IMG/VR virus record: IMGVR_UViG_3300036958_000855
Coordinates: 1-64,000 of that record
DNA length: 64,000 bases
Direction: 5' to 3' (one strand)
Source of the DNA: a virus
Lineage: Duplodnaviria > Caudoviricetes
The translations under genes and the position numbers were made by a program. Under the pieces are notes generated by a model. The model saw nothing but the letters and a program-made list of their open reading frames with translations, ran no database searches and was not told where the DNA came from. Positions 4,792 through 60,927 of the stretch are shown one piece after another (position 1 is the first letter of the stretch; each line of letters starts with the position of its first letter).

Positions 4792-5421
4792 TCACGCTCC
4801 GTCGAGCAGACGAAGCAGCCCGTCCGCCATGTCCCCTCCCTTGCCGATTGCCTTGCGCAGCCCGCGCTTGGCGCGGGCGAGGTCTGCCTTCGTCGCGTAC
4901 CGCAACTCCAGCACGAACGGTCGGTCCTGCGCTTCCTCTGGCTCGTCCTGCGCCGTGACCGGATGCTCCATCACGTCGTCTGGCACCTGTCGCTGTGCGG
5001 AGTGAAGCAGATGGTCCAGCTCGTCCGTCGTGAAGCCGGTCAGCGAGAGGTCGTCCATCGACCATCCGTTCGCGTGGAGCGTGGCGACGGAAGCAGCGAC
5101 CGCGGCGAGGTTGAGCTGCCCGCGAAGGTTGTTCATCCCGATGCGCACAGCGACGGTCTTGCCGTCGTCGTGGCGCTCGACGCACGGTAGCGCGGTGTAC
5201 CCTACTTCTGCTGCGGCACGCTTGCGGTGCACGCCGTCCACGATGCGCCAGCGGGCACCAGCACGTTCGACGAGGATGGGTTGCAAGAACCCCACCTCCT
5301 GAATGGCCTGCACGAGCAGCGCGAACTTCTCCGCCGTCATGGCGTTTTCGTTGTCTGGCGCCTCGTCCAGGTCAGCGATGGGGATTGTGAGGATTGGAGG
5401 TGTGGCATGCGTTGCGGTCAT
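4792..5421 (-). CDS. ParB/Srx-like N-terminal domain protein
   Basis: PDNEN, GFLQPILV and WRIVDGVHRKRAA motifs; start taken at ATG 5421. Confidence 0.8.
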   Translation of the reverse strand: MTATHATPPILTIPIADLDEAPDNENAMTAEKFALLVQAIQEVGFLQPILVERAGARWRIVDGVHRKRAAAEVGYTALPCVERHDDGKTVAVRIGMNNLRGQLNLAAVAASVATLHANGWSMDDLSLTGFTTDELDHLLHSAQRQVPDDVMEHPVTAQDEPEEAQDRPFVLELRYATKADLARAKRGLRKAIGKGGDMADGLLRLLDGA

Positions 5422-5431
5422 GCCACGGATG

Positions 5432-5995
5432 CTACCACTCGCGTCGCTGGCGGAGCAAGCGCCACAGGCGCCCGCTCCTCCGTGCTGCCTCGCGGAAGGT
5501 CCAGATGGCGTCGTAGACGCGCAGGCGGTCCACGCCTTCAAGCGCAATCGCCTCGCGTGGTTCCAAGCCGTCGAGCACGACCCGGCGCGCGAGAGTGGCT
5601 TTCGGAGTCGTGGCAAGCAGCCGCTCGAACTCTTCCCGCACACTGGCGCGCCAGTGCGCGTCGGCGAGCGCCTCGTCCGCGTCCTCGTAGTTCACGCGAA
5701 GCGTGTCAATGGCGTCGAGCGAGGCGCGGTGCTGTGTGCGGAGGCGATGAGGGTCGTGCCCGCCTCCGCACACAGGGCTCGATTCTCGCCACAGGTAGCG
5801 CTTGAGCGCAAGGATGACCGCGCGCCATACGTACGCCTCCAGCGGCACCCGTACCGCGGGCTGGTACGTGCGCTGGGCGTGGAGCGCGGCGAGGTGAGCC
5901 TCCTGCCGGAGGTCATCTGGGTCTGCCCACCAGCACTGCCGGGCGTAGCGCGCCGCGGCAGCGTGGCAGATGCGCGTGATGGCATCCGTGCTCAT
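5432..5995 (-). CDS. Phage-encoded sigma70-family (ECF-like) sigma factor
   Basis: Region 2 pattern DDLRQEAHLAAL...Y...PLEAYVWRAV plus a C-terminal HTH-like region 4. Confidence 0.7.
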   Translation of the reverse strand: MSTDAITRICHAAAARYARQCWWADPDDLRQEAHLAALHAQRTYQPAVRVPLEAYVWRAVILALKRYLWRESSPVCGGGHDPHRLRTQHRASLDAIDTLRVNYEDADEALADAHWRASVREEFERLLATTPKATLARRVVLDGLEPREAIALEGVDRLRVYDAIWTFREAARRSGRLWRLLRQRREW

Positions 5996-12246: not shown

Positions 12247-12306
12247 CCCGGCGCCAATCGCGCAAGCGTGCTTGCCATCTTTGCCGCAACGTGGCACAAG
12301 CACGGC

Positions 12307-12807
12307 ATGGGCAAGCCAGAACCAGCATCAGTACGCTTCTGGCGCAAGGTCGAACGCAGCGCGGATGGGTGCTGGCGTTGGCTTGGCGCGATTCGCCCGA
12401 ATGGGTATGGAGTATTCGCTCCGACGCGCGCACAGCTTGTTTCGGCGCATCGCTACTCGTACGAGCTGCACTTCGGCTCAATTCCAATTGGAGCGGACGT
12501 TTGCCACTCATGCGACGTGCGCGCCTGTGTCAATCCAGCGCATCTGTTCGTCGGGTCTCGCGCCGACAACATGAGGGACGCTGTTCGGAAGCGACGAACG
12601 TGCGTGGGCGAGCAGCGTCCGAATCACAAACTCACAGACTCGGCGGTTCGCGAGATTCGCCGCGCGTATGCAGCGGGTGGAGAATCGCTGCTGCGATTGG
12701 CAAGGCGTTATGCTGTGGACCACACCGTCATCTGGCAGGTGGTTCGCGGAAAGGCGTGGAAGCATGTCCGCAACGAAGAGCGCGTTGGGGCGTCGGTCCA
12801 GAGCTAA
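12307..12807 (+). CDS. Free-standing HNH homing endonuclease with C-terminal HTH
   Basis: CWRWLG, GYG, AHRYSY, VCHSCDVRACVNPAHL...DN; more A/T-ending codons than its neighbours. Confidence 0.88.
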   Translation: MGKPEPASVRFWRKVERSADGCWRWLGAIRPNGYGVFAPTRAQLVSAHRYSYELHFGSIPIGADVCHSCDVRACVNPAHLFVGSRADNMRDAVRKRRTCVGEQRPNHKLTDSAVREIRRAYAAGGESLLRLARRYAVDHTVIWQVVRGKAWKHVRNEERVGASVQS

Positions 12808-13210
12808 GGGTGCTGCCTTTGAGCGACTCGTGGCGAAGAAAGTGCGCGATGTGTATCCAGAAGCGCGTCGTGGCATCGGCCAAGCAAGGTCAGCGAAGGA
12901 GGTATGTGATGTGGATGGCACCCCATGGTGGTTTGAGCTGAAGCACAAGAAGGGCGTCTCCGTGCTCGCGGCACTCCGCCAAGCGCAGCGTGACACGGAC
13001 AAGCGCCCAGTCGTGGTGGTGTGGCGCGAGAGTGGCGAACGCACCATCTACGCGAGCCTTGACGTGAACACGTTCGTCCGCAACTTCACGAAGGTCGAGG
13101 TCGCGCTTGGGCGCGAGCCCAAGGCGCTCGGCGGTCTGGACGAACTGCTCGTGCACTTGGCGTTGGATGACTTCCTGCGCCTTCTCAAAGGAGGCTGGGT
13201 GTGGCGATGA
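12764..13210 (+). CDS. Holliday junction resolvase (Hjc-like PD-(D/E)xK nuclease)
   Basis: SRAKGAAFERLVAKK...CDVDG...WFELKHKK. Confidence 0.8.
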   Translation: MSATKSALGRRSRAKGAAFERLVAKKVRDVYPEARRGIGQARSAKEVCDVDGTPWWFELKHKKGVSVLAALRQAQRDTDKRPVVVVWRESGERTIYASLDVNTFVRNFTKVEVALGREPKALGGLDELLVHLALDDFLRLLKGGWVWR

Positions 13211-13428: not shown

Positions 13429-13563
13429 CGGGGCTGCGAGGTGGGTCGCAGCCCCGAGACAAAGAACACGCCCTCGGCGGTCACGCCCTCCGTCACCCTG
13501 CACCGGCAACAGAGGCGCCTTGGGCGTGTTCAGCTTGTGCCAGAGTCCTGCCTAGCAGGACTC
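13429..13563. terminator. Structured convergent terminator region
   Basis: 11-bp stem 13429-13456 after the plus-strand operon; 9-bp stem 13543-13563 with the late-operon stop codon as loop; GAACACGCCC/GGGCGTGTTC arms between them; no clear U-tract. Confidence 0.55.
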
Positions 13564-13857
13564 AGCGGCTTCACACGATGCAGCCGACGCAAGGCATGAC
13601 GTGCGGAAGTCGATGCCGTTCGCTTGGGCGTTGGCGCACACGTCCTCGCACGAGGCTCCGCGCGCCGTCGGCTTGCCGATGTCGCACCCGAGACGACGCA
13701 TGTTCTCGCACGCTGCCGGGCAGCCGGGCAGCGCTACGCCTCCGTCGTTGGTCGGGGCTGGTGGTGGGTTTGGTGGTGGTGGCGGAGGGCAGCCTTGCAC
13801 GGCGACGGCCAGTATGAGCGCCGTCGCGAACAGCGATACGCGAGCGTAGAGCTTCAT
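13552..13857 (-). CDS. Pro/Cys-rich lipoprotein (o-spanin-like candidate)
   Basis: Signal peptide with lipobox VQG-C, poly-Pro linker, multiple Cys; last gene of the lysis-like cassette. Confidence 0.6.
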   Translation of the reverse strand: MKLYARVSLFATALILAVAVQGCPPPPPPNPPPAPTNDGGVALPGCPAACENMRRLGCDIGKPTARGASCEDVCANAQANGIDFRTSCLASAASCEAAESC

Positions 13858-14642
13858 GCGGCAACCTCCAGCAGCGGCGCCGACTGGATGACGTACACGT
13901 CGTCCACCCAGGCGCTCTCGAACAGCTCTGGCGCGAGCACGCCAAGCCCGTCGTCGTATCCCCAATCGTCCCACCAGTTGTCGAACACGATGCATCCGTC
14001 CGAACGCACTTCCAGCACGGTCAACATGTGCCCGCCGAGAAGCCGCGTTCCGTCGATGGCGTGAATGGGCGCGTCGGAGCTGACTTTCGTGAACGGCTCG
14101 TCCACCTGAATGCCGAATATCATGCCGAGCCCGCGGCGTAGCGCGTCCTTAGCAGCGGACACGCGGCTGCCGAATGCGCGGTAGTAGCCGAAGTCCCGCT
14201 GGTCGTACGCGAGACGCAGCAGGTTGGCCTTCAGCTCATGGTTGACCTTGGCGTCGTCGTATGGGCACTGGTCCGCCCGAAGCATGCCAACGTTGCGCAC
14301 CGCCTTCATCGCGAGGCGCGGGTACATCCCCGTGTCGTCGAGCGGAGGAGCGGATGCCGGGTCGAGCCCGGCGTTTTCCTGCTTGCGCCCAGCCCAGTAG
14401 GTGAACATCGCGCTCGGCATGGGCGCCGCGTCGTTGCCGCGGGCGAGCTGGCAGATGTGCGAAGCGCGGGTGATGGCCTGCGCCACGCACGACCCAGCGT
14501 GTCCCTGAAGCAAACGCCCGCGACGGAAGCGCAGCACGGAGGCCTCCGATTGGATAGTCGTGCGCAGCTTCTGCCCGAACAACACCGAGGTCGAGTAGTC
14601 GCGCTCGTCTCGCTTGTCCTTCTTCCATCCGAGCGAGGTCAT
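13854..14642 (-). CDS. Papain-like (C1A) cysteine peptidase, no signal peptide
   Basis: GWKKDKRDERD N-terminus, QGHAGSCVAQA (Q/C), GGHML (H), FDNWWDDWG (N). Confidence 0.85.
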   Translation of the reverse strand: MTSLGWKKDKRDERDYSTSVLFGQKLRTTIQSEASVLRFRRGRLLQGHAGSCVAQAITRASHICQLARGNDAAPMPSAMFTYWAGRKQENAGLDPASAPPLDDTGMYPRLAMKAVRNVGMLRADQCPYDDAKVNHELKANLLRLAYDQRDFGYYRAFGSRVSAAKDALRRGLGMIFGIQVDEPFTKVSSDAPIHAIDGTRLLGGHMLTVLEVRSDGCIVFDNWWDDWGYDDGLGVLAPELFESAWVDDVYVIQSAPLLEVAA

Positions 14643-14643
14643 G

Positions 14644-14922
14644 TTACTGCCCTCCCGCCGAAGATGCAGGTGGTGGCGCTTGCGGCGCGGGTGCGGATGC
14701 CGCTGCGCGCTGTGCCGCTGTCTTGCGCCCGTACTCGGCCAGCTCCTTGTTCGTCATGCGAACCTCATAGACCTTCCCGTCCGGTCCGAGGTAGCGCAAT
14801 ACGGTGCACGCCTGCTGCGCCGCTTCCGCGGTCACATCTACGACCCCGCACACCGCGGCGCCGTGCCCGCACGCGGCGAGCGTGATTGCGAGCAAGATGC
14901 CCGCGAAGATTCGCTTGTTCAT
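14644..14922 (-). CDS. Small lipoprotein
   Basis: MNKRIFAGILLAITLAA-C lipobox. Confidence 0.7.
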   Translation of the reverse strand: MNKRIFAGILLAITLAACGHGAAVCGVVDVTAEAAQQACTVLRYLGPDGKVYEVRMTNKELAEYGRKTAAQRAAASAPAPQAPPPASSAGGQ

Positions 14923-15284
14923 GGGTTCTTGGCCTCCTCCGAAGGCTTCACCTCCGGCTTGGGTTTCGCGAACAGCTCACGCCCACCACGCAGGTACTCG
15001 ATGAGCCCGTCATGCATGAGCACGGCGAGCAGGGCGCCGATGAGGTTCTCCGCGAGCGCCTTCTGCCACGGCGCCCCAGCAGCGAATGCCTGGAGCCCGG
15101 CGCCCGCAAAGCCGAGCACGACGACCAGCAGCGTGCGCAGCTTGGATGGGATGCGCGCCACGAGCGGGATGGGCATGTCCGCCTTGAAGAGGCGCATCAC
15201 GAAGAAGATGACGATGGTTGCTGCGCCTGCCCAACGGTGGTCGAGCAAGAGCGTAACGAGTGTGCTGACGGCTTCGGAATCCAT
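14919..15284 (-). CDS. Holin-like membrane protein
   Basis: Two to three hydrophobic segments and a charged C-terminal tail, after the tail-fibre genes. Confidence 0.6.
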   Translation of the reverse strand: MDSEAVSTLVTLLLDHRWAGAATIVIFFVMRLFKADMPIPLVARIPSKLRTLLVVVLGFAGAGLQAFAAGAPWQKALAENLIGALLAVLMHDGLIEYLRGGRELFAKPKPEVKPSEEAKNP

Positions 15285-15297
15285 GGTGCCTCCTGGT

Positions 15298-15690
15298 CTA
15301 CTTGAGGAACAGCTCGGCGAGAAGCATGCCGAACCCGCCTCCGCCAAGCAGCAGGCTTGTGGCGGTCGTGATACCCCAGAACAGCCACTTGCGGCGCTCC
15401 TCGTCGCGTCGCTTCAACTCCGCCTTGAGGTCTAAAAGCTCGTGACGCCCGGTCGTTTCGTCGTGCTCCTTGAGGGCGCCAACGGACGTGCGCATCGTCG
15501 CCATCTCCGCATCTACCTGCTTGTGGCGCAATCGGCACGACCCCTCGAAGCCCTCCACCTTTCCGCCAAGGCGCAAGACCTCGCCCTTCATGTCGGACAG
15601 CTCCTCCATGACGCGCTTCTCGAAGGCGCGCTGCTCTTGCGACATCACGTGGAGAGCCGACATGATTCTGGCTTCTGCATCTGGTACCAC
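15298..15690 (-). CDS. Coiled-coil protein with C-terminal TM segment (XhlA/holin-accessory-like)
   Basis: Heptad-rich body, then RRKWLFWGITTATSLLLGGGGFGMLLAELF. Confidence 0.55.
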   Translation of the reverse strand: MVPDAEARIMSALHVMSQEQRAFEKRVMEELSDMKGEVLRLGGKVEGFEGSCRLRHKQVDAEMATMRTSVGALKEHDETTGRHELLDLKAELKRRDEERRKWLFWGITTATSLLLGGGGFGMLLAELFLK

Positions 15691-15699
15691 AGGAACCTC

Positions 15700-17463
15700 C
15701 TATGCCAACTGCAACGCATTGACCGCCAAGAACGAGTCCCCATCCCCGATGTAGGTAGTCGCGGAGCCGGTACACCGGACTTCCGCGCGCACCTGGACGT
15801 TGGTGTGGTGCGTTGCGCTGTATGGGAGGCTGTACTCTCCCATCAGCGCGAACGGGCCAGGAGCGTAGATGTCGGTGACTCCGATGCGCTCCCAAGGCCA
15901 GTAGGCCAGCGTACCTGGCACCTCGCGCCACGTCGGGTCTTCGGTCGTGTACACGGTGCACCGGGCGTAGACGGCGCCAGAGCCGAGCGTCGGGTTGCGG
16001 AGCCCAGACTTCAGGTGCACAGCGAGCTTCGTGTAGTTGGGCAACGCTGGGAATGTGACCCCCAACGTCGTGGCGCCGCTGTCCTTCGTGATGGCGTGCC
16101 AATTCGAGTCGCCAGCGATGTTATCGAACGAGTCCGCGTCGTCGAACACGATGGTCTTGTGCCCGCGCACCATCGCTGCAGCGTTGTCGTCCCACGATGA
16201 CCAGTTCGAGGACGTGTTTTGCTTGTACCAGTGTTGCTCTCCGTAGAGTGCGTGCCGCGTAATCTGGATGGCTTGTTGCGTGTTGTCGTCCGCTTGCCAG
16301 GTCGGAGAACCGTAGGTGTACTCGGCGTTGATGGTGATGACTTCCATGTAGTGCGTGCGGTAGTGACGCACAATGCGATGGTTGGTTGCGCCGCTCTTCA
16401 GAAGCGTCTTCTTGATGAGAACGTAAGAGTCTGCGCCAGAGTCGTATTCCGCGTAGATGCGCGGCGACGCGATAGACGCGCAAGCCAGCGATATGCCGTC
16501 GTCCGCGACGATGTTGCTGCTGAACGTGTTCACGTCTGCCCAGGCGTTGACGGCATCAAGCACGCCACGGGCGTTGACGGCATCAAGCAACGCCACGAGT
16601 TGGTCGCGCACGGAGCCGGTCGGCAGCGACGATGGGGAACCCGTGTAGGCGTAGGAGCCAATCTTGGCGCTGCCAGACCCGAGCAGAATGTGGCACAAGG
16701 CAAGGTCCGCAACAATCTTGTCGAGCTGGTCCTCTGCCGTCGTCGCCGGGTTCGTGGTTCCGTTGTACCAGTTCGGGCCTCCCGCGTAGCTCACGCTCGT
16801 CGCGGCGACGAGCCCACCGCCCGTGCTGATGGAGTTCAGAATGTCGTAGATGTCCTGCACGACTTCGCGCATCGTGCCGCGAGCGCCGTAGTACGCGGCG
16901 CCGCTCTGGCGGAACTGCCACTGGCGCCGTGTCGTGTCGATGTCGCTGTCATTGATGGCCGTCTCGCCGTAGTTCAGCAACACGTCTGCGAGCAGCACAT
17001 AGTCGGGGTCGAGCGCCGGGCGCGTAGCCGTGCCAATGGGCGCCTCCGCGCCCTGCACGACACGGAGCACGAAGCTCTCGGCACGCTCGAAGTACACCGT
17101 CTCGCTGTTGCCGTCCGTGCGCGGGTCCGACAGCGTGCGGTCGAACCCAAGCTGGATGGACAGCCACTTCTCGTTGCCTATGTTGAGAACCGCGGTACTG
17201 ATGTCGTTGTAGTCCACGGCGCAGTCGAGGTTTTGCGTCGTGGCGAACGCGATGCGCTGGCCGTCCCCGTCGTACGCCACGCCTCCTTCCACATCTACCG
17301 TGAGGTTTGGCACCGTGTTCTCGGTGACAGTCAGCCCGTTGTAGATGCCGTCGAAGTCGGCGTCCGCCCATTGGGCGTGGTCTGCGTCTTCACAGTAGGT
17401 GAAGCCCTTGTCGAGTTCGGCCTCCGTGACACGCTGGCGGAAGTAGTAGTCGAGACGGTTCAT
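15700..17463 (-). CDS. Tail fibre / receptor-binding protein
   Basis: N-terminus MNRLDYYFRQRVTEAELD...TVDVEGGVAYDGDGQRI typical of fibre anchors; compositionally distinct C-terminus; follows the baseplate genes. Confidence 0.7.
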   Translation of the reverse strand: MNRLDYYFRQRVTEAELDKGFTYCEDADHAQWADADFDGIYNGLTVTENTVPNLTVDVEGGVAYDGDGQRIAFATTQNLDCAVDYNDISTAVLNIGNEKWLSIQLGFDRTLSDPRTDGNSETVYFERAESFVLRVVQGAEAPIGTATRPALDPDYVLLADVLLNYGETAINDSDIDTTRRQWQFRQSGAAYYGARGTMREVVQDIYDILNSISTGGGLVAATSVSYAGGPNWYNGTTNPATTAEDQLDKIVADLALCHILLGSGSAKIGSYAYTGSPSSLPTGSVRDQLVALLDAVNARGVLDAVNAWADVNTFSSNIVADDGISLACASIASPRIYAEYDSGADSYVLIKKTLLKSGATNHRIVRHYRTHYMEVITINAEYTYGSPTWQADDNTQQAIQITRHALYGEQHWYKQNTSSNWSSWDDNAAAMVRGHKTIVFDDADSFDNIAGDSNWHAITKDSGATTLGVTFPALPNYTKLAVHLKSGLRNPTLGSGAVYARCTVYTTEDPTWREVPGTLAYWPWERIGVTDIYAPGPFALMGEYSLPYSATHHTNVQVRAEVRCTGSATTYIGDGDSFLAVNALQLA

Positions 17464-17473
17464 TGCGTTCTCC

Positions 17474-18832
17474 TCAATGCAGCTCCCAGGTGTCGCCGAG
17501 GTCGCTGAGCCCAAGCTCCACGTGCTCGATGACTTCTGGCGTTGTCGGCTCCAAGAGTCGCACGAAGTGGGTATGCGCGGGCTTCATGAAGTTCACGATG
17601 TCGGTCATGCGTGCCCGCTGCTCGTCCGTGAGCGTGACCGGACAGTCCACGTCGAAGGCGTAGCGCGCCCAGCGCCCGTCTGGCCCGAGCACCCAGTCGT
17701 CCCCGAGGTAGGATTCCCCCAGGTACATCGCATCGACCGTGAACGGAACGAAGTCGATGTCGATGCCCATGAAGAAGCGAACCACGTTGGCGATGCCAGG
17801 CGCGGTCCCCGTCTGCCCGTAGATGGCGAGCAGCACGCGCACCAACCTGCGCTTGTCCACCTCGGTCAGGTCGAAGGGGAACGGGTTGCCGAGGTCCGCG
17901 AGCATGGCGTCGAGGAACTCCTCTGGCGCCGTGTCCGGGTCCAGGATGTCGCTGTAGCTGTCGAGGTCGTACAGAAGCACGTTCACGACCTCTTGCAAGC
18001 ACGAGAGGAACCGAAGCATGTCGCCCGTGCCGAAGCGGTCCTCTGCTCGGTTGATGGCTGGCATCATGGAATACAAGTCGAAGTCGCGCCCGGCAGGCGC
18101 CGCGGGCGTCACTGCCGTGAACAGCGCTGCGTTCGTTGGCGCCTCGACCGCGTTGCCATCCGTGTCCTCCACATCCGTCACAACCAGCATGTAGACCATG
18201 CCGAAGGTCAGCTCGGACGCGAACGTGAGGTCCACCGTGGTCGAGTTGACACTTGCCACGGACGCCACGGCTGGCTCGTACGCGGGCGCGCCTTGCGCAA
18301 GCACGAGGTAGTTGAGCGGGTTCAGCGCGTCGTTCGTGGCGCTGGCGTCTGCCTGCTGCACATCGTCGTCCCATGCGACGCGCACTACCCGCGGGGTGCG
18401 CGCGCTCACGGCAACGATGGATGGAGCCAGCACGTCTTCCAATGTGAACGTGTAGGTCGTGTCGAGCGACGCGCCGAGGTCGCTCGTGGCGGTGACCACG
18501 CGCACCGTGACCGTGAGCCCGGCGAACGCGGCGACCTTGACGATGTTGAAGGCGAAGCCACTCAGGTGCACCGACACGGAGCCCGTGAAGCCAGACTGGA
18601 ACCCGCCAGCGCCACCATCGTACGCGAGCGCCCCATCCACCCACACCTGCGTGTAGGAAAGCGAGAGGTCCGCGCCAACGAGGTCGAGCGCGTGGAAGGC
18701 GATGCTCGTGTCGATGGCAACGTCGGCCTCGTTCGGCTCCGGGTCGAGGTTCACGAGCCGGATGCGGTCGCCTCCGCCATCTGCCACGAGGGCGTCGAAG
18801 TAGACAGCCGGGATGAACAGCTCGAAGCTCAT
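17474..18832 (-). CDS. Baseplate wedge/tail protein (P2 gpI-like C-terminus) with Ig-like domains
   Basis: LDPDTAPEEFLDAMLADLG...IYGQTGTAPGI...FMKPAHT. Confidence 0.75.
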   Translation of the reverse strand: MSFELFIPAVYFDALVADGGGDRIRLVNLDPEPNEADVAIDTSIAFHALDLVGADLSLSYTQVWVDGALAYDGGAGGFQSGFTGSVSVHLSGFAFNIVKVAAFAGLTVTVRVVTATSDLGASLDTTYTFTLEDVLAPSIVAVSARTPRVVRVAWDDDVQQADASATNDALNPLNYLVLAQGAPAYEPAVASVASVNSTTVDLTFASELTFGMVYMLVVTDVEDTDGNAVEAPTNAALFTAVTPAAPAGRDFDLYSMMPAINRAEDRFGTGDMLRFLSCLQEVVNVLLYDLDSYSDILDPDTAPEEFLDAMLADLGNPFPFDLTEVDKRRLVRVLLAIYGQTGTAPGIANVVRFFMGIDIDFVPFTVDAMYLGESYLGDDWVLGPDGRWARYAFDVDCPVTLTDEQRARMTDIVNFMKPAHTHFVRLLEPTTPEVIEHVELGLSDLGDTWELH

Positions 18833-39936: not shown

Positions 39937-41175
39937 TCAATGCGGCACCGCCACGAAGCGCACGGGGAAGGACGAACCTCCAGTCGGCATGAACTGCGCC
40001 CAAGGCGCTGGCGTTGCGCTCAGGTTGTAGCGCCCCTCCACAGCTCCCTTGGCGTTGTCCCCGGTGCTCCCAGATGCTGCCGGGATGAGGAACTTTCCGC
40101 CAGGAAGAAGCCCGGCGAGCGTCCAAGCCGCGCCTCCCCACTGTCCAGCGCGCGGGTTGATGAGGAACCCGATGTTCTGGCCGTCACTTGCGGACGTGGC
40201 GATGTGCATCCGGTAGAGCACTCCGTAGTTCCCAGCATTCGTCATCGCCGTCCCGTCTGTCACGTCCACGCCAACCGCGAACGCATCCGTCGCGGTGCCA
40301 CCAGCGACAGGGAATTGCTGCACGCCAGCAGCCGTGTCGATGATGACGCCACTCGCCGTGTCATACACCTTGTCGGCGTAGGGGAACGTCCCGCGCTTGT
40401 GCGTGTCGCGGGCGAGCACGGCGAGCGTCGGGCATACCGTGAGCGGCGCGTCGTTCGTGGCGAGAATGCAGATGGTGACCTGGTGCGTCTGGCCGAAGCT
40501 GTAGTCCCAGATGCCATGCAGCAGGTTGCCGGTGTTCACGTCCGTCACGTCGAACGTCGTGTCGAGCCGCACCGTGGCGCCCGCGGCAACGTTCACGGGT
40601 GTTGCCGCAGCAGCGTTGAGCCAGCGCTCGAAGGCGAGCTTGCCTGCGTAGAGGAACGATGTGGTCGGGCCAGCCGTGCCGCGTCGTTGCACCGTGAGCG
40701 TGCCCGCGCTTGCCGACGTGTTCTTGAGCAACACGGTGAAGCGCGACTTCGCAGAGCGCCCGTTCACGTGATACGCGAACACGCGGTTGTAGTCGGAACC
40801 GCTTGTCGCGGGCAACGTGCCGTCCTCGTAGAGCTTGCCGCGGTCAGTCGGCGTCTCTGGCGAGTCGCTGAAGATGAGCTTTCCACCTGCCCATGTCTCC
40901 GTCATTGTGACTTCCGGGCACGTGAGGGGATTGAGCCCGGACAAGCTGATGACCGCGGCTTGCGACGCAGCGGTGAGGTCCGTGTCGAGCTGCGCGGGCG
41001 TCGGGCACTGCGCCACGCCAGCACGTGTTTCGGAAGCCGTTGGAGCTGCGGGCGCTGAAGCCTCTGGCGTCGCAACGTCGGGCAACGTCGGCGCGGGAGC
41101 CGCGTTCACGCACGGCGCGGGCGAGCGGGTGCACGCAGCGAGCAACACGAACATCAACAGAGCAAGCTTCTTCAT
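39937..41175 (-). CDS. Large lipoprotein with beta-rich extracytoplasmic domain
   Basis: MKKLALLMFVLLAA-C lipobox; Pro/Ala linker; LIFSDSPE...G.LY.D...RVFAYHVN. Confidence 0.75.
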   Translation of the reverse strand: MKKLALLMFVLLAACTRSPAPCVNAAPAPTLPDVATPEASAPAAPTASETRAGVAQCPTPAQLDTDLTAASQAAVISLSGLNPLTCPEVTMTETWAGGKLIFSDSPETPTDRGKLYEDGTLPATSGSDYNRVFAYHVNGRSAKSRFTVLLKNTSASAGTLTVQRRGTAGPTTSFLYAGKLAFERWLNAAAATPVNVAAGATVRLDTTFDVTDVNTGNLLHGIWDYSFGQTHQVTICILATNDAPLTVCPTLAVLARDTHKRGTFPYADKVYDTASGVIIDTAAGVQQFPVAGGTATDAFAVGVDVTDGTAMTNAGNYGVLYRMHIATSASDGQNIGFLINPRAGQWGGAAWTLAGLLPGGKFLIPAASGSTGDNAKGAVEGRYNLSATPAPWAQFMPTGGSSFPVRFVAVPH

Positions 41176-58429: not shown

Positions 58430-59920
58430 TTATCCGACTACCCGCGCACCGACACTCCCCGCGCCCGCGGCGCCACCGCGCTCCAGCTTGCGCGCGCCCT
58501 CGCGCGCAAACCACGAGGCCATCAGCCGGTCGCCCGTGTGCTCTTGCGGGTCGTAGTAGAGCATCTCCCCGACCCAAGCCGCGACCTCCGGGTCCATCTT
58601 CCCGCCAACGTTGGGGATGATCCAGCGCCCGCCAGCCATCTCCGCAGCAAGGCTCTCCACGCCAAACTCGGGGTTTGCCTTGTTGCGCCCGGTCGTGAAG
58701 GGAACGATGACCGCCTTGCTCCCAAGCGCAGGGGCGAACTGGAGGAGGAAGTCCTGCGCCGCGACGTTCTCAATGATGAACACACCACCGAAGCGCTGGT
58801 CGAGGTCCACCAGCTTCGCCACGATCTCGGGTCCGCTCCAGCGCCCGCTCTCGATATGGAGCACCTGGCGGGTGCCGTCCGGGTGCAGGAGGAGCGTGAA
58901 GAAGCACGTCAAGTCGCTGTGCGCGTGCCGCTGCACGGCGAGGTCAACGCCCGTGTAGAGCGCGTACCCGCCCTCAGGGAGCTGCACTACGCGGTCCACG
59001 CACTTGTAGCCGCGCCCGCGCTCCAGGCCACGCTCCACCCACTCGCGCTTGAACCGTGCCGCAGCATCGTCGCGCGCCAAGCACAGGAGCTGGCGGTTGG
59101 CCTCCAGGGGTCCGAGCGTCGTCATCGCCTTCGCGATGCGCTCCTTGGGCCAGACCGCAGGCCACGAAAGCTCCCCAGCATCGCTCACGACCGGGAAGCG
59201 GTACGAGGTGAAGCCGGGCATTGCGGCAAGGCGGTGCATGGCGTCGTCCGGGTGCCAGGCGTTGCCGACGCACGTGACGGAGCTGTTCTCGGTGAGGCGC
59301 GGGAGTAGGGTGCTCTGGACCCAGCGCCACGTGTCCTCGCGGGGTCCGGGTGTGCGCGTGTTCTCGTAGTCGAGGATGTCGTCAAGCACGAGGTCGTCGA
59401 TGCGCGCCCCTGTGATGTTGCCGTGGATGCCGCACGCCTGGATGCTCGGGTCTTTCCCGATGACCGTGCGCTCGACCGTGATTGCCATGGCGGTCCACGG
59501 GAGGCTGATGTCGCGCGCCTTGCGCAGGTCCGGGAAGACCTGGTGCAGCTCATCGCTGCGCTCGATGTACTGCGCGCACGTGCGCACAACCTTCTTCGCC
59601 TGCTCGCCCGTGTTGCTCACGACCACGATGCGCCGGTTGGGGTCGCGCCCAAGGCGCCAGAGGGGACGGCCAACGGAGAGCTGCGCGGTCTTGCCCGCCT
59701 CCACGTGCGCCCAGATGACAACGCGGTCGTGGTTGTCGAGGATGTCGTGCCACTTGTCGTGCATGGGCGCCTGCACGATGTCCTTCCCCGTTCGCTCGTC
59801 GCGCAGCACCAGAGGGCAGAAGGTGCGGGCGTCGCGCCGCGCAACCTCCCGCCGTATGGCACGGGCGCGGGCGAGTGCGCTGCTCGCGTGCGCTGCCTGC
59901 TCAATGACCGGCGCTGGCAT
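58430..59920 (-). CDS. terL: Terminase large subunit
   Basis: HVEAGKT Walker A, GARIDDLVLDD Walker B, GNAWHPDD, RNase H-like TGVDLA...SD, HTGDRLMA. Confidence 0.93.
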   Translation of the reverse strand: MPAPVIEQAAHASSALARARAIRREVARRDARTFCPLVLRDERTGKDIVQAPMHDKWHDILDNHDRVVIWAHVEAGKTAQLSVGRPLWRLGRDPNRRIVVVSNTGEQAKKVVRTCAQYIERSDELHQVFPDLRKARDISLPWTAMAITVERTVIGKDPSIQACGIHGNITGARIDDLVLDDILDYENTRTPGPREDTWRWVQSTLLPRLTENSSVTCVGNAWHPDDAMHRLAAMPGFTSYRFPVVSDAGELSWPAVWPKERIAKAMTTLGPLEANRQLLCLARDDAAARFKREWVERGLERGRGYKCVDRVVQLPEGGYALYTGVDLAVQRHAHSDLTCFFTLLLHPDGTRQVLHIESGRWSGPEIVAKLVDLDQRFGGVFIIENVAAQDFLLQFAPALGSKAVIVPFTTGRNKANPEFGVESLAAEMAGGRWIIPNVGGKMDPEVAAWVGEMLYYDPQEHTGDRLMASWFAREGARKLERGGAAGAGSVGARVVG

Positions 59921-60278
59921 ACTCGGCCTCGTCGAAAAGCTGCACGTACCACTCGCGCTCCTGCGCGAGGTACTTCTGGTTGCCTCCGGCGCTCAGAGCA
60001 CAGCCGTGAACGCCCTCGCACACGTCCTGCACGTAGTTCATGCCATGCGCGCGCACGTCGGCGAAGTCGAGCCGGGCGGTGCGCACGACGCGCGTAGCGC
60101 CATTGTGACCGTGGATGGCAACCACGGCGTCCATGCTGTCGTAGACGGCGACGCTCGTGTGCGCGGTGAGCCACGCAAGGACCACCTTGCCGTTGTCAAG
60201 GACCACGCCACGGGCGACCGTCCCCGTCCCACTAACCCCTGTCTCGTCCACGTCGCGGCGAAGTTCAAACACGTCCAT
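59901..60278 (-). CDS. Conserved phage hypothetical protein (DETGVSGTG...HGHNGAT)
   Basis: FELRRDVDETGVSGTGTVARG...W...HGH.G.T pattern. Confidence 0.7.
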   Translation of the reverse strand: MDVFELRRDVDETGVSGTGTVARGVVLDNGKVVLAWLTAHTSVAVYDSMDAVVAIHGHNGATRVVRTARLDFADVRAHGMNYVQDVCEGVHGCALSAGGNQKYLAQEREWYVQLFDEAEYASAGH

Positions 60279-60927
60279 CTGTCCCTCCTTCCGGCGCGAG
60301 GCGCGCGAACCAGCGCAAGTCCTCAAGCGACCCATTCCAGCGGTTCAAGTCACAGGGGGTGGGGATGCCGGGCACGGCGCCGGACCAGGAGTATTGCCAC
60401 ACAAGCCACTCGCCCCAGCCCGCGGGGAGCATGGGCGCGGGCTTGCCACGGGTGTCGGCGACCCACAGGGCGAAGCGGTCGAGCCCCTCGGGCAGGCCAC
60501 CTATGGCGCCGCTCCACCAGCCAGCCATGGTGTAGAGGAGCGGGGCCAAGCCGGTGCGCTCCCAAGCACGCTCGCAGAAGGTGTTCACGCGCCGGGCACG
60601 CTCGGCCTTCGTGAGCCCCTCTCCCCCTGACTCGATATCGCACACGGGCGGGAGGATACCAGGGGGGAGGGGCAAGGGCTCCAGCCCAAGCAGAGCGTCG
60701 CACAAGCGGTCGGCCTGCGCCACTGGGTCCAAGGCGAGGCGGAAGAAGTGGTAGGCGCCACGGAGCATCCCCGCGGCACGGGCGCCAGACCAGTTCTCCG
60801 CAAAGCGCCTGTCCGGCTTCACACCATCCCCTGTGCGCAGCCAAGCGAAGCTCACGTGCTCCGCGACCGCACGCCAGCGTATCTGCCCGTTGTGGTGGCT
60901 CACATCTACGCCAAGAACGTCAGCCAT
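60265..60927 (-). CDS. GH25 muramidase endolysin (catalytic domain only)
   Basis: GVDVSHHNG, RGAYHFF, CDIES, LLYT, LWVA, VWQYS, CDLN. Confidence 0.92.
   Translation of the reverse strand: MADVLGVDVSHHNGQIRWRAVAEHVSFAWLRTGDGVKPDRRFAENWSGARAAGMLRGAYHFFRLALDPVAQADRLCDALLGLEPLPLPPGILPPVCDIESGGEGLTKAERARRVNTFCERAWERTGLAPLLYTMAGWWSGAIGGLPEGLDRFALWVADTRGKPAPMLPAGWGEWLVWQYSWSGAVPGIPTPCDLNRWNGSLEDLRWFARLAPEGGTDGRV

Follow-up and report, generated by a model that had tools for sequence, protein, structure and literature searches.

In the genome of an uncultured, contractile-tailed phage of soil type, we found a compact block of five genes that is probably the membrane and envelope part of its lysis system, and in which a papain-type cysteine peptidase would be an accessory lytic enzyme, not a substitute for a muramidase. 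The genome is a linear IMG/VR virus record (IMGVR_UViG_3300036958_000855; 83,651 bp, CheckV completeness of 78%), and the stretch analyzed here, called the window throughout, comprises its bases 1 to 64,000 (64,000 nucleotides [nt], GC content ca. 65%). The block consists of five minus-strand open reading frames (ORFs) at positions 13552 to 15690, directly after the gene of a tail-fibre-like protein of 604 amino acids (aa) and ahead of a terminator-like hairpin. They code for a tail-anchored membrane protein (gpA), a holin-like membrane protein (gpB), a small lipoprotein (gpC), the peptidase (gpD), and a second lipoprotein (gpE). The recurrence of the arrangement in related contigs indicates that its conserved core is made up of holin-like protein, lipoprotein, peptidase, and lipoprotein, in this order.

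Architecture and coding support of the block

In the direction of transcription, the first gene is gpA (130 aa, 15298 to 15690), with a GTG start behind an AGGAGG, followed by gpB (121 aa, 14919 to 15284, for which the ATG at 15284 is the better start), gpC (92 aa, 14644 to 14922), gpD (262 aa, 13854 to 14642), and gpE (101 aa, 13552 to 13857), all on the minus strand. All five genes are real. Their codon-position GC is gene-like, with GC content at third positions (GC3) of 0.75 to 0.85 and at second positions (GC2) of 0.40 to 0.63, and each of the five starts has a Shine-Dalgarno-like GGAGG/GGGAGG site ahead of it. It should be mentioned that a crude GC3-based gene caller at first preferred overlapping ORFs on the plus strand; codon-position GC decided for the minus strand, and the plus-strand ORFs are read as shadow frames because their GC2 is high. 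ATGA overlaps connect gpB with gpC and gpD with gpE, and the spacing between gpC and gpD is 1 nt. A preliminary description, made by a model from the sequence alone, had reported a tightly packed five-gene block after the tail fibre, and the reading frames, the Shine-Dalgarno sites, and the overlaps or gaps of 1 to 4 nt from gpB to gpE all agree with it.

Downstream, on the same strand, a GC-rich 11-bp hairpin followed by TCAGTTTGTC (13429 to 13456) is located between the block and the converging plus-strand genes and is possibly the end of the late operon. As a terminator, this hairpin is weak, since the consensus terminator scan did not list it. Consensus scans of the region for promoters and terminators were uninformative.

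A predicted peptidase of the xylellain type

Searched by itself, gpD gave no match in Pfam, NCBIfam, or PHROGs (PF00112 was absent even at an E value of 10), a single-sequence search of the PDB returned 3OIS alone, at an E value of 1, and a viral scan with gpD as a single protein was empty. An exhaustive homologue search recovered 1261 cluster representatives at an E value of ≤1e-3, 75 of which were used to build an alignment and a profile. Against the PDB, this family profile matched xylellain (3OIS) at 1.4e-48 over residues 4 to 260, i.e., the full length, followed by cathepsins, Der p 1, and papain; a total of 189 PDB sequences, mostly papain-family chains, were matched at an E value of ≤0.01. 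Among the 75 family members, 31 reached PF00112 and 45 matched phrog_16701 (“peptidase”). Residues C52, H205, and W224 are invariant in the alignment of the 75 homologues, and Q46 and N222 are at least 90% conserved. The set Q46/C52/H205/N222/W224 is spaced like Q19/C25/H159/N175/W177 of papain (Q-C 6, H-N 17, and N-W 2 in gpD; 6, 16, and 2 in papain).

The AlphaFold2 (AF2) model of gpD (predicted local distance difference test [pLDDT] of 95.5, predicted template modeling score [pTM] of 0.93) has the papain fold, which is composed of a helical L domain and a beta-barrel R domain. Foldseek placed 3OIS first (1e-13) and then cathepsins B, K, and L, Der p 1, and papain, all with a probability of 1.00. 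Hydropathy and motif checks found a hydrophilic N terminus, with no transmembrane (TM) or hydrophobic segment and no signal peptide. The alignment with xylellain begins at residue 4, and therefore, there is no separate cathepsin-type prodomain. By profile and predicted fold, gpD is thus a xylellain-type “short” C1A peptidase. The earlier identification of a C1A protease with intact Gln, Cys, His, and Asn residues and without a signal peptide is in line with the profile, the AF2 fold, and the conserved residues. Peptidase activity itself is predicted from the family, the fold, and the conserved catalytic residues.

Xylellain (from Xylella fastidiosa) and gpD are both single-domain proteins of ca. 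260 to 290 aa, lack a signal peptide, and have the same Gln/Cys/His/Asn set. However, gpD is only ca. 20% identical to xylellain, misses the Pfam C1 model when searched alone, and belongs to the late operon of a phage, where its gene is coupled to that of a lipoprotein. Xylellain-type short C1A peptidases have been acquired by Caudoviricetes through horizontal transfer, and their functions are barely studied (PMC10380794). Among the fold matches of gpD in BFVD are phage proteins called “Peptidoglycan binding-like,” “Copper amine oxidase,” and “N acetylmuramidase.” A search for fused forms of the peptidase, from 528 to 2000 aa, found none, which is weak evidence.

The two lipoproteins and the two membrane proteins

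Like bacterial lipoproteins, gpC and gpE begin with a signal peptide that ends in a lipobox Cys, and both are small and bear Pro and Cys; the folded 55-residue domain of gpE is unlike typical o-spanins. The smaller one, gpC, has an LAAC lipobox, three Cys, and an Ala/Pro-rich tail. It matched PF08139 weakly (E value of 0.044, below the family cut-off), and its nearest named Atlas cluster was the o-spanin RzoQ (0.89), which is below the trust level and is taken as a lead only. The same applies to the Atlas look-alikes of gpE, which are Myxococcota lipoproteins (0.88, also below the trust level and a lead only).

In gpE, a hydrophobic leader ending at Cys23 (VQGC) is followed by a Pro-rich stretch and then by a helical domain with eight further Cys. 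The lipobox Cys is invariant in nine homologues, most of them with canonical lipoboxes. Across the family, the Pro-rich linker has ca. 5 to 55 residues, and the domain, of 55 residues, contains six to eight Cys. It is predicted to form four short helices (pLDDT of 88 to 95 over residues 45 to 101), and no informative PDB match to this fold was found, since Foldseek returned nothing and the best VIA-align results (best Z of 3.1) were designed helical proteins. Two Cys, C50 and C70 (residues of gpE in the window), are both present in one subgroup of the family and both replaced in another (by Tyr/Lys and Trp), while in a third subgroup one Cys has been relocated to a C-terminal GVxC. The paired presence or absence of C50 and C70 is what a disulfide would give, and the pattern as a whole fits the swapping of disulfide pairs. 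Judging from the invariant lipobox Cys and the covarying Cys pairs, gpE is predicted to be extracytoplasmic.

The first protein of the block, gpA, has a charged helical N-terminal part and a single C-terminal TM segment (ca. residues 103 to 129) behind a KRRDEERRK flank. We rejected gpA as an i-spanin, because its sole TM segment is C-terminal with the positive flank on the N side, i.e., the reverse topology. No other candidate for an i-spanin (N-terminal TM anchor plus periplasmic coiled coil) was found in the block, as had been reported from the sequence before. In gpB there are two to three hydrophobic segments and a K/E-rich C-terminal tail. Its only holin profile match was a weak one, to phrog_126 (holin/antiholin, E value of 0.034), and no Pfam holin family was matched. 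Nevertheless, it has the structural traits of holins (small size, TM segments, a charged C terminus, and a gene in the lysis block) and is the sole small multi-TM protein found in the 83.6-kb record, hence the only holin candidate. It is the putative holin of this phage.

Conservation of the block in related contigs

Pattern scans found a viral contig (L002) and seven metagenome contigs (L003 to L009) with peptidases 37 to 44% identical to gpD, as well as a sister clade of three viral contigs (L021 to L023, the P0005-8 group) whose peptidases are ca. 34% identical to it. A further viral contig (L024, GC content of 72%) has a peptidase 33% identical to the first sequence of the query alignment (A9). 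A gene for a gpE-type lipoprotein comes next after the peptidase in 12 of 12 assessable contigs (the window, L002 to L008, and L021 to L024); L009 was not counted here because it ends inside the peptidase gene. In those contigs in which its start was read, this gene overlaps the stop of the peptidase gene or directly adjoins it. This coupling holds across a conserved block in which peptidase identity is just 33 to 44%.

The place of gpC, directly upstream of the peptidase, is taken by gpC homologues in L004 (1.1e-15), L009 (9.7e-5), and L024 (50% identity, 2e-17) and by a different, helical lipoprotein in L005 and L006. In L022 (3834 to 4532, plus strand) and L023 (3947 to 4555, plus strand), the holin-like ORF was seen, by eye, to contain at its 3′ end, in the same frame and after a stretch rich in Pro, a gpC-like lipoprotein with a hydrophobic leader and a lipobox of its own, which is either a nested gene started from within the ORF or fused to the holin. 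L024 also has a homologue of gpB (30% identity, E value of 1e-8). In L002, a D12-class adenine DNA methyltransferase gene (PF02086, E value of 1.5e-10; 5048 to 5986, plus strand) lies between the first lipoprotein and the peptidase, so that the block tolerates an inserted gene while the coupling of peptidase and gpE is kept.

The first gene of the block codes everywhere for a membrane-anchored coiled-coil protein, anchored at the C terminus in the window, L009, and L002 and at the N terminus in L021 to L024. The proteins in the place of gpA in L009 and L002 are analogous, without detectable sequence similarity. In the sister clade (L021, 2975 to 3397; L022, 3050 to 3472; L023, 3165 to 3590; all plus strand), this protein has 140 aa, with an N-terminal TM segment and a C-terminal coiled coil, a shape like that of an i-spanin, and the one in L021 weakly matched the Lpp leucine zipper (E value of 0.031). 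Directly after the gpE-type gene, L021 and L022 carry a PF01832 glucosaminidase. Other possible wall hydrolases noticed by eye, i.e., SLT-like proteins in L021/L023 and L024 and an NlpC/CHAP-like ORF in L002 (7067 to 7630), got no support from Pfam, PDB sequences, BLASTP, or the phage collection. The preliminary description had proposed a synteny survey as a check, and all assessable related contigs showed the peptidase in linkage with a holin-like protein and with lipoproteins.

The same peptidase type in cultured phages

A member of the gpD family (P0088) retrieved 22 phage records by tblastn, three of them with readable lysis contexts. The peptidases of these three phages, MMB025, THSA-485A, and Lilbeanie, are homologous to the gpD family with hhalign probabilities of 99.5, 99.0, and 98.3%, respectively. 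In Alicyclobacillus phage MMB025, the peptidase is part of a 753-aa protein annotated (automatically) as endolysin, which combines Peptidase_C1, an Rv2525c glycosidase-like domain, and PG_binding_1. In Thermoanaerobacterium phage THSA-485A, the C1 peptidase comes immediately after a GH25-PG_binding_1 endolysin, and in Gordonia phage Lilbeanie, the “cysteine protease” gp40 is located between two lysin A genes and the holin. These cases, together with the phage in the window, indicate that glycosidases and C1 peptidases are repeatedly paired, whether as fused, adjacent, or (here) distant genes. Literature searches found no direct report of a C1A or papain-type endolysin, or of such a protease in a lysis cassette, and no paper on the lysis role, the substrate, or a lipoprotein partner of this peptidase. 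We know of no C1A enzyme that has been shown to cut peptidoglycan.

A muramidase at the other end of the late region

The likely peptidoglycan-cutting endolysin of the phage is a GH25 muramidase of 220 aa without a signal peptide, encoded at 60265 to 60927 on the minus strand. It matched PF01183 at an E value of 1.1e-27 (97.9 bits against a cut-off of 27), the catalytic motifs GVDVS and DIE are readable in its sequence, and it shares ca. 27 to 35% identity with phage genes, several of which carry the annotation of a GH25/PlyB-like endolysin. The gene is two genes upstream of the large terminase (58430 to 59920, minus strand), at the head of the late region, a lambda-like position. The holin-like gene is 45 kb away, where the late operon ends, so that the two lysis loci flank the structural block on either side. 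Lacking a signal peptide, the muramidase would need a holin, and gpB is the natural one because no other small multi-TM protein was found in the record. Beyond the window, a 458-aa ORF (68211 to 69587 of the genome; 4211 to 5587, minus strand, of L013) has a subthreshold C-terminal CHAP match (E value of 5.8e-4, 20.7 bits against a cut-off of 26) and, if real, codes for a further wall-acting enzyme distant from both lysis loci. The absence of a peptidoglycan hydrolase noted in the preliminary description consequently holds inside 13552 to 15690 and fails for the record as a whole, which has the GH25 gene and the weak CHAP match.

Genomic setting

Pfam scans of the predicted proteins identify a contractile-tailed phage. 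Upstream of the block are tail and baseplate families (baseplate J, gp25, gpV/gpD hub, CIS tube, and tape measure), and the head and sheath genes include a portal, an HK97-type capsid, an XkdF-type S78 prohead protease, and a sheath. The S78 protease, portal, and capsid genes are all within the structural/late region at 31.7 to 63.7 kb, and replication genes were found by Pfam beyond the end of the window. No tRNA genes were found. The last structural gene before the block, at 15700 to 17514 on the minus strand, is that of the tail-fibre-like protein, which is 32% identical over 168 aa (E value of 6e-11) to the ORF preceding the same block in L009.

The cultured-phage collection gave no match, either by a DNA search with the window or by tblastn with gpD, and contains no close protein relatives. 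Scans of genome contigs with the peptidase alignment and with the large terminase found no prophage relative of this phage; the three terminase relatives (G001 to G003) have neither the peptidase nor GH25 in their fragments. Another lipoprotein signal (LLAAC lipobox), followed by an Ala/Pro-rich linker, was detected at the start of a 412-aa protein of the structural module (39937 to 41175, minus strand), and an exported lipoprotein is unexpected among virion genes. Converging on the end of the block from the plus strand are an HNH endonuclease with a helix-turn-helix tail (PF13392, 9e-11; 12268 to 12807) and a RusA-like resolvase (phrog_244, 1e-14; 12668 to 13210). As listed, these two ORFs overlap by 140 nt, so the start of the resolvase is probably at a later ATG.

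Proposed role of the block and alternatives

We consider it probable that the five genes are the membrane and envelope part of the lysis system and that gpD is an accessory lytic enzyme. The block would be transcribed at the end of the late (tail) operon, and gpB would act as the holin, opening the inner membrane at the end of infection. The GH25 muramidase and gpD, both made in the cytoplasm without signal peptides, would then reach the periplasm, where gpD would most likely cut wall peptides (stem peptides or cross-links), as CHAP or NlpC/P60 modules do in two-activity endolysins. gpE, cotranslated with gpD, would be exported as a disulfide-bonded lipoprotein on a Pro-rich tether and may be the dedicated periplasmic partner of gpD, for docking, targeting, or control. 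gpC would be a second small lipoprotein, possibly with an o-spanin-like role, and gpA may be a membrane-anchored accessory or timing protein. In this scheme the release route, the substrate of gpD, its contact with gpE, and the roles of gpA and gpC are inferred.

The fusion of homologous peptidases to glycosidase and wall-binding domains points to a target in or on the wall. CHAP and NlpC/P60 modules belong to the same clan as the C1A peptidases, and by analogy with them, peptide stems or cross-links are the favoured target.

Several points weigh against this interpretation. The activity of the phage members of the gpD family is a prediction from their sequences, and classical C1A enzymes cut L-peptide bonds of proteins; the bonds of Gram-negative-type peptidoglycan, which involve D-amino acids or gamma linkages, would be unusual substrates. 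The evidence from fusion and adjacency comes from phages of Gram-positive or mycolate hosts, whereas the lipoproteins of the block suggest a diderm host. The holin profile match of gpB is weak, the distance of 45 kb to the GH25 gene makes the joint release of both enzymes a matter of inference, and the reversed topology of gpA leaves no complete spanin to be recognized. With a record that is 78% complete, further lysis genes could be missing from it. Finally, the reducing cytoplasm would keep gpD active before release, and neither an inhibitor nor a prodomain was identified.

The alternative that fares best, although we regard it as unlikely, is that gpD, held at the outer membrane by gpE once GH25 has cut the wall, cleaves the Lpp-, OmpA/Pal-, or SLH-type proteins by which the outer membrane is tethered to the wall and so replaces or assists a spanin. 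It would explain why the lipoprotein is obligatory and why no complete spanin, either two-component or unimolecular, is recognizable in the block. C1A enzymes are typically endopeptidases that cut proteins, the lipoprotein that always goes with the peptidase has a linker of very variable length, and with a separate muralytic glycosidase present, a second peptidoglycan enzyme is not strictly needed. However, the sister blocks in L021 to L024 do have N-anchored coiled-coil proteins of i-spanin-like shape, gpC is near the RzoQ o-spanin cluster (as a lead), and in phages of monoderm hosts, homologues of the peptidase are fused to peptidoglycan-binding domains.

Much less probable is that gpD is the sole endolysin of the phage and takes the place of the peptidoglycan hydrolase, as a strong version of the preliminary description would have it. 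No hydrolase is encoded inside the block, and the 36-kb fragment L002 contains no GH25, but the muramidase at 60265 to 60927 is well above the Pfam cut-off and retains its catalytic motifs, the weak CHAP match adds a possible second hydrolase, a glucosaminidase adjoins the peptidase-lipoprotein pair in L021 and L022, and all three cultured examples have a glycosidase partner. Of the non-canonical lysis system of the preliminary description, the conserved module in lysis position is supported, but the idea of a protease standing in for a missing hydrolase is not; cross-links, envelope tethers, and the lipoproteins, to be activated by cleavage, were its candidate substrates.

Equally improbable, in our view, is a receptor-destroying or exclusion module, in which the lipoproteins and the protease would modify or remove the protein receptor of the phage, against superinfection or against the sticking of progeny to debris. 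The block comes directly after the tail fibre, and lipoproteins beside receptor-binding genes are established for T5 (Llp) and for the phi80/N15 group (Cor). Nevertheless, gpD has no export signal, so its access to the envelope needs membrane permeabilization; a holin-like gene and, in relatives, peptidoglycan hydrolases are in the same block; and Lilbeanie, THSA-485A, and MMB025 have lysins and a holin in the neighbourhood instead of receptor-binding genes.

Least credible of all is a cytoplasmic role, in which gpD would degrade proteins of the host or of the phage within the cell (for takeover, anti-defence, or processing) and its neighbours would be unrelated: the missing signal peptide and the reducing conditions that favour a cysteine peptidase would suit it, but the exported, disulfide-rich lipoprotein that strictly accompanies the peptidase in 12 of 12 contigs, the late-operon position, the fusions to wall-binding domains elsewhere, and a head protease role already filled by the S78 enzyme all argue against it. 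For this last reason, gpD was also rejected as a head maturation protease; a virion maturation protease was one of the outcomes by which the preliminary description would have been refuted.

Comparison with known lysis systems and implications

The usual scheme of phage lysis consists of a holin, a peptidoglycan hydrolase, and a spanin. Compared with lambda S, R, and Rz/Rz1, the block in the window is likewise a packed late block with a small multi-TM protein that has a charged tail, an enzyme without a signal peptide, and small Pro-containing lipoproteins, and the holin-dependent release logic of lambda fits it. In contrast to lambda, the block encodes a papain-type peptidase in place of a muramidase, transglycosylase, or amidase, it has two lipoproteins and no N-anchored i-spanin, and the lipoprotein genes are neither embedded in an i-spanin gene nor overlapping one.

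A close parallel to the proposed role of gpD as an accessory enzyme is found in two-activity endolysins such as that of MMB025, in which a homologous C1 domain precedes the glycosidase-like and PG_binding_1 domains; the mycobacteriophage LysA and CHAP-containing lysins are further modular endolysins with two activities. THSA-485A and the phage in the window are alike in having a GH25 enzyme and a free C1 peptidase. Unlike the MMB025 fusion, gpD is a free-standing protein that lacks a wall-binding domain; its gene lies 45 kb away from that of the glycosidase, and it is a lipoprotein with which gpD is paired. The mycobacteriophage LysB resembles, in concept only, the alternative of tether cleavage, as a second lytic enzyme that acts at the link between wall and outer layer after the peptidoglycan enzyme; it is a serine esterase on mycolyl-arabinogalactan and has no relation of sequence or fold to gpD.

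The peptidase family and its occurrence in phages have already been published (PMC10380794); the proposed lysis role and the lipoprotein partner, on which the full-text searches found no paper, are the new part. What is described here is a conserved block different from the usual scheme, composed of a holin-like protein, a lipoprotein, a papain-type peptidase, and a lipoprotein, in uncultured phages; a peptidase of this type also belongs to lysis modules in three cultured phages from unrelated hosts. It also corrects the earlier picture of this phage, which does carry an ordinary muramidase. If the substrate of gpD is peptidoglycan, endolysins would gain a new catalytic family, and enzybiotic engineering could make use of it. 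If instead it is an envelope protein tether, the peptidase would be a new solution to the outer-membrane step of lysis, and the peptidase-lipoprotein pair might then, though we put this forward as a rather doubtful possibility, do by proteolysis what spanins and LysB do, and it may occur widely in phages of diderm bacteria from soil and gut.

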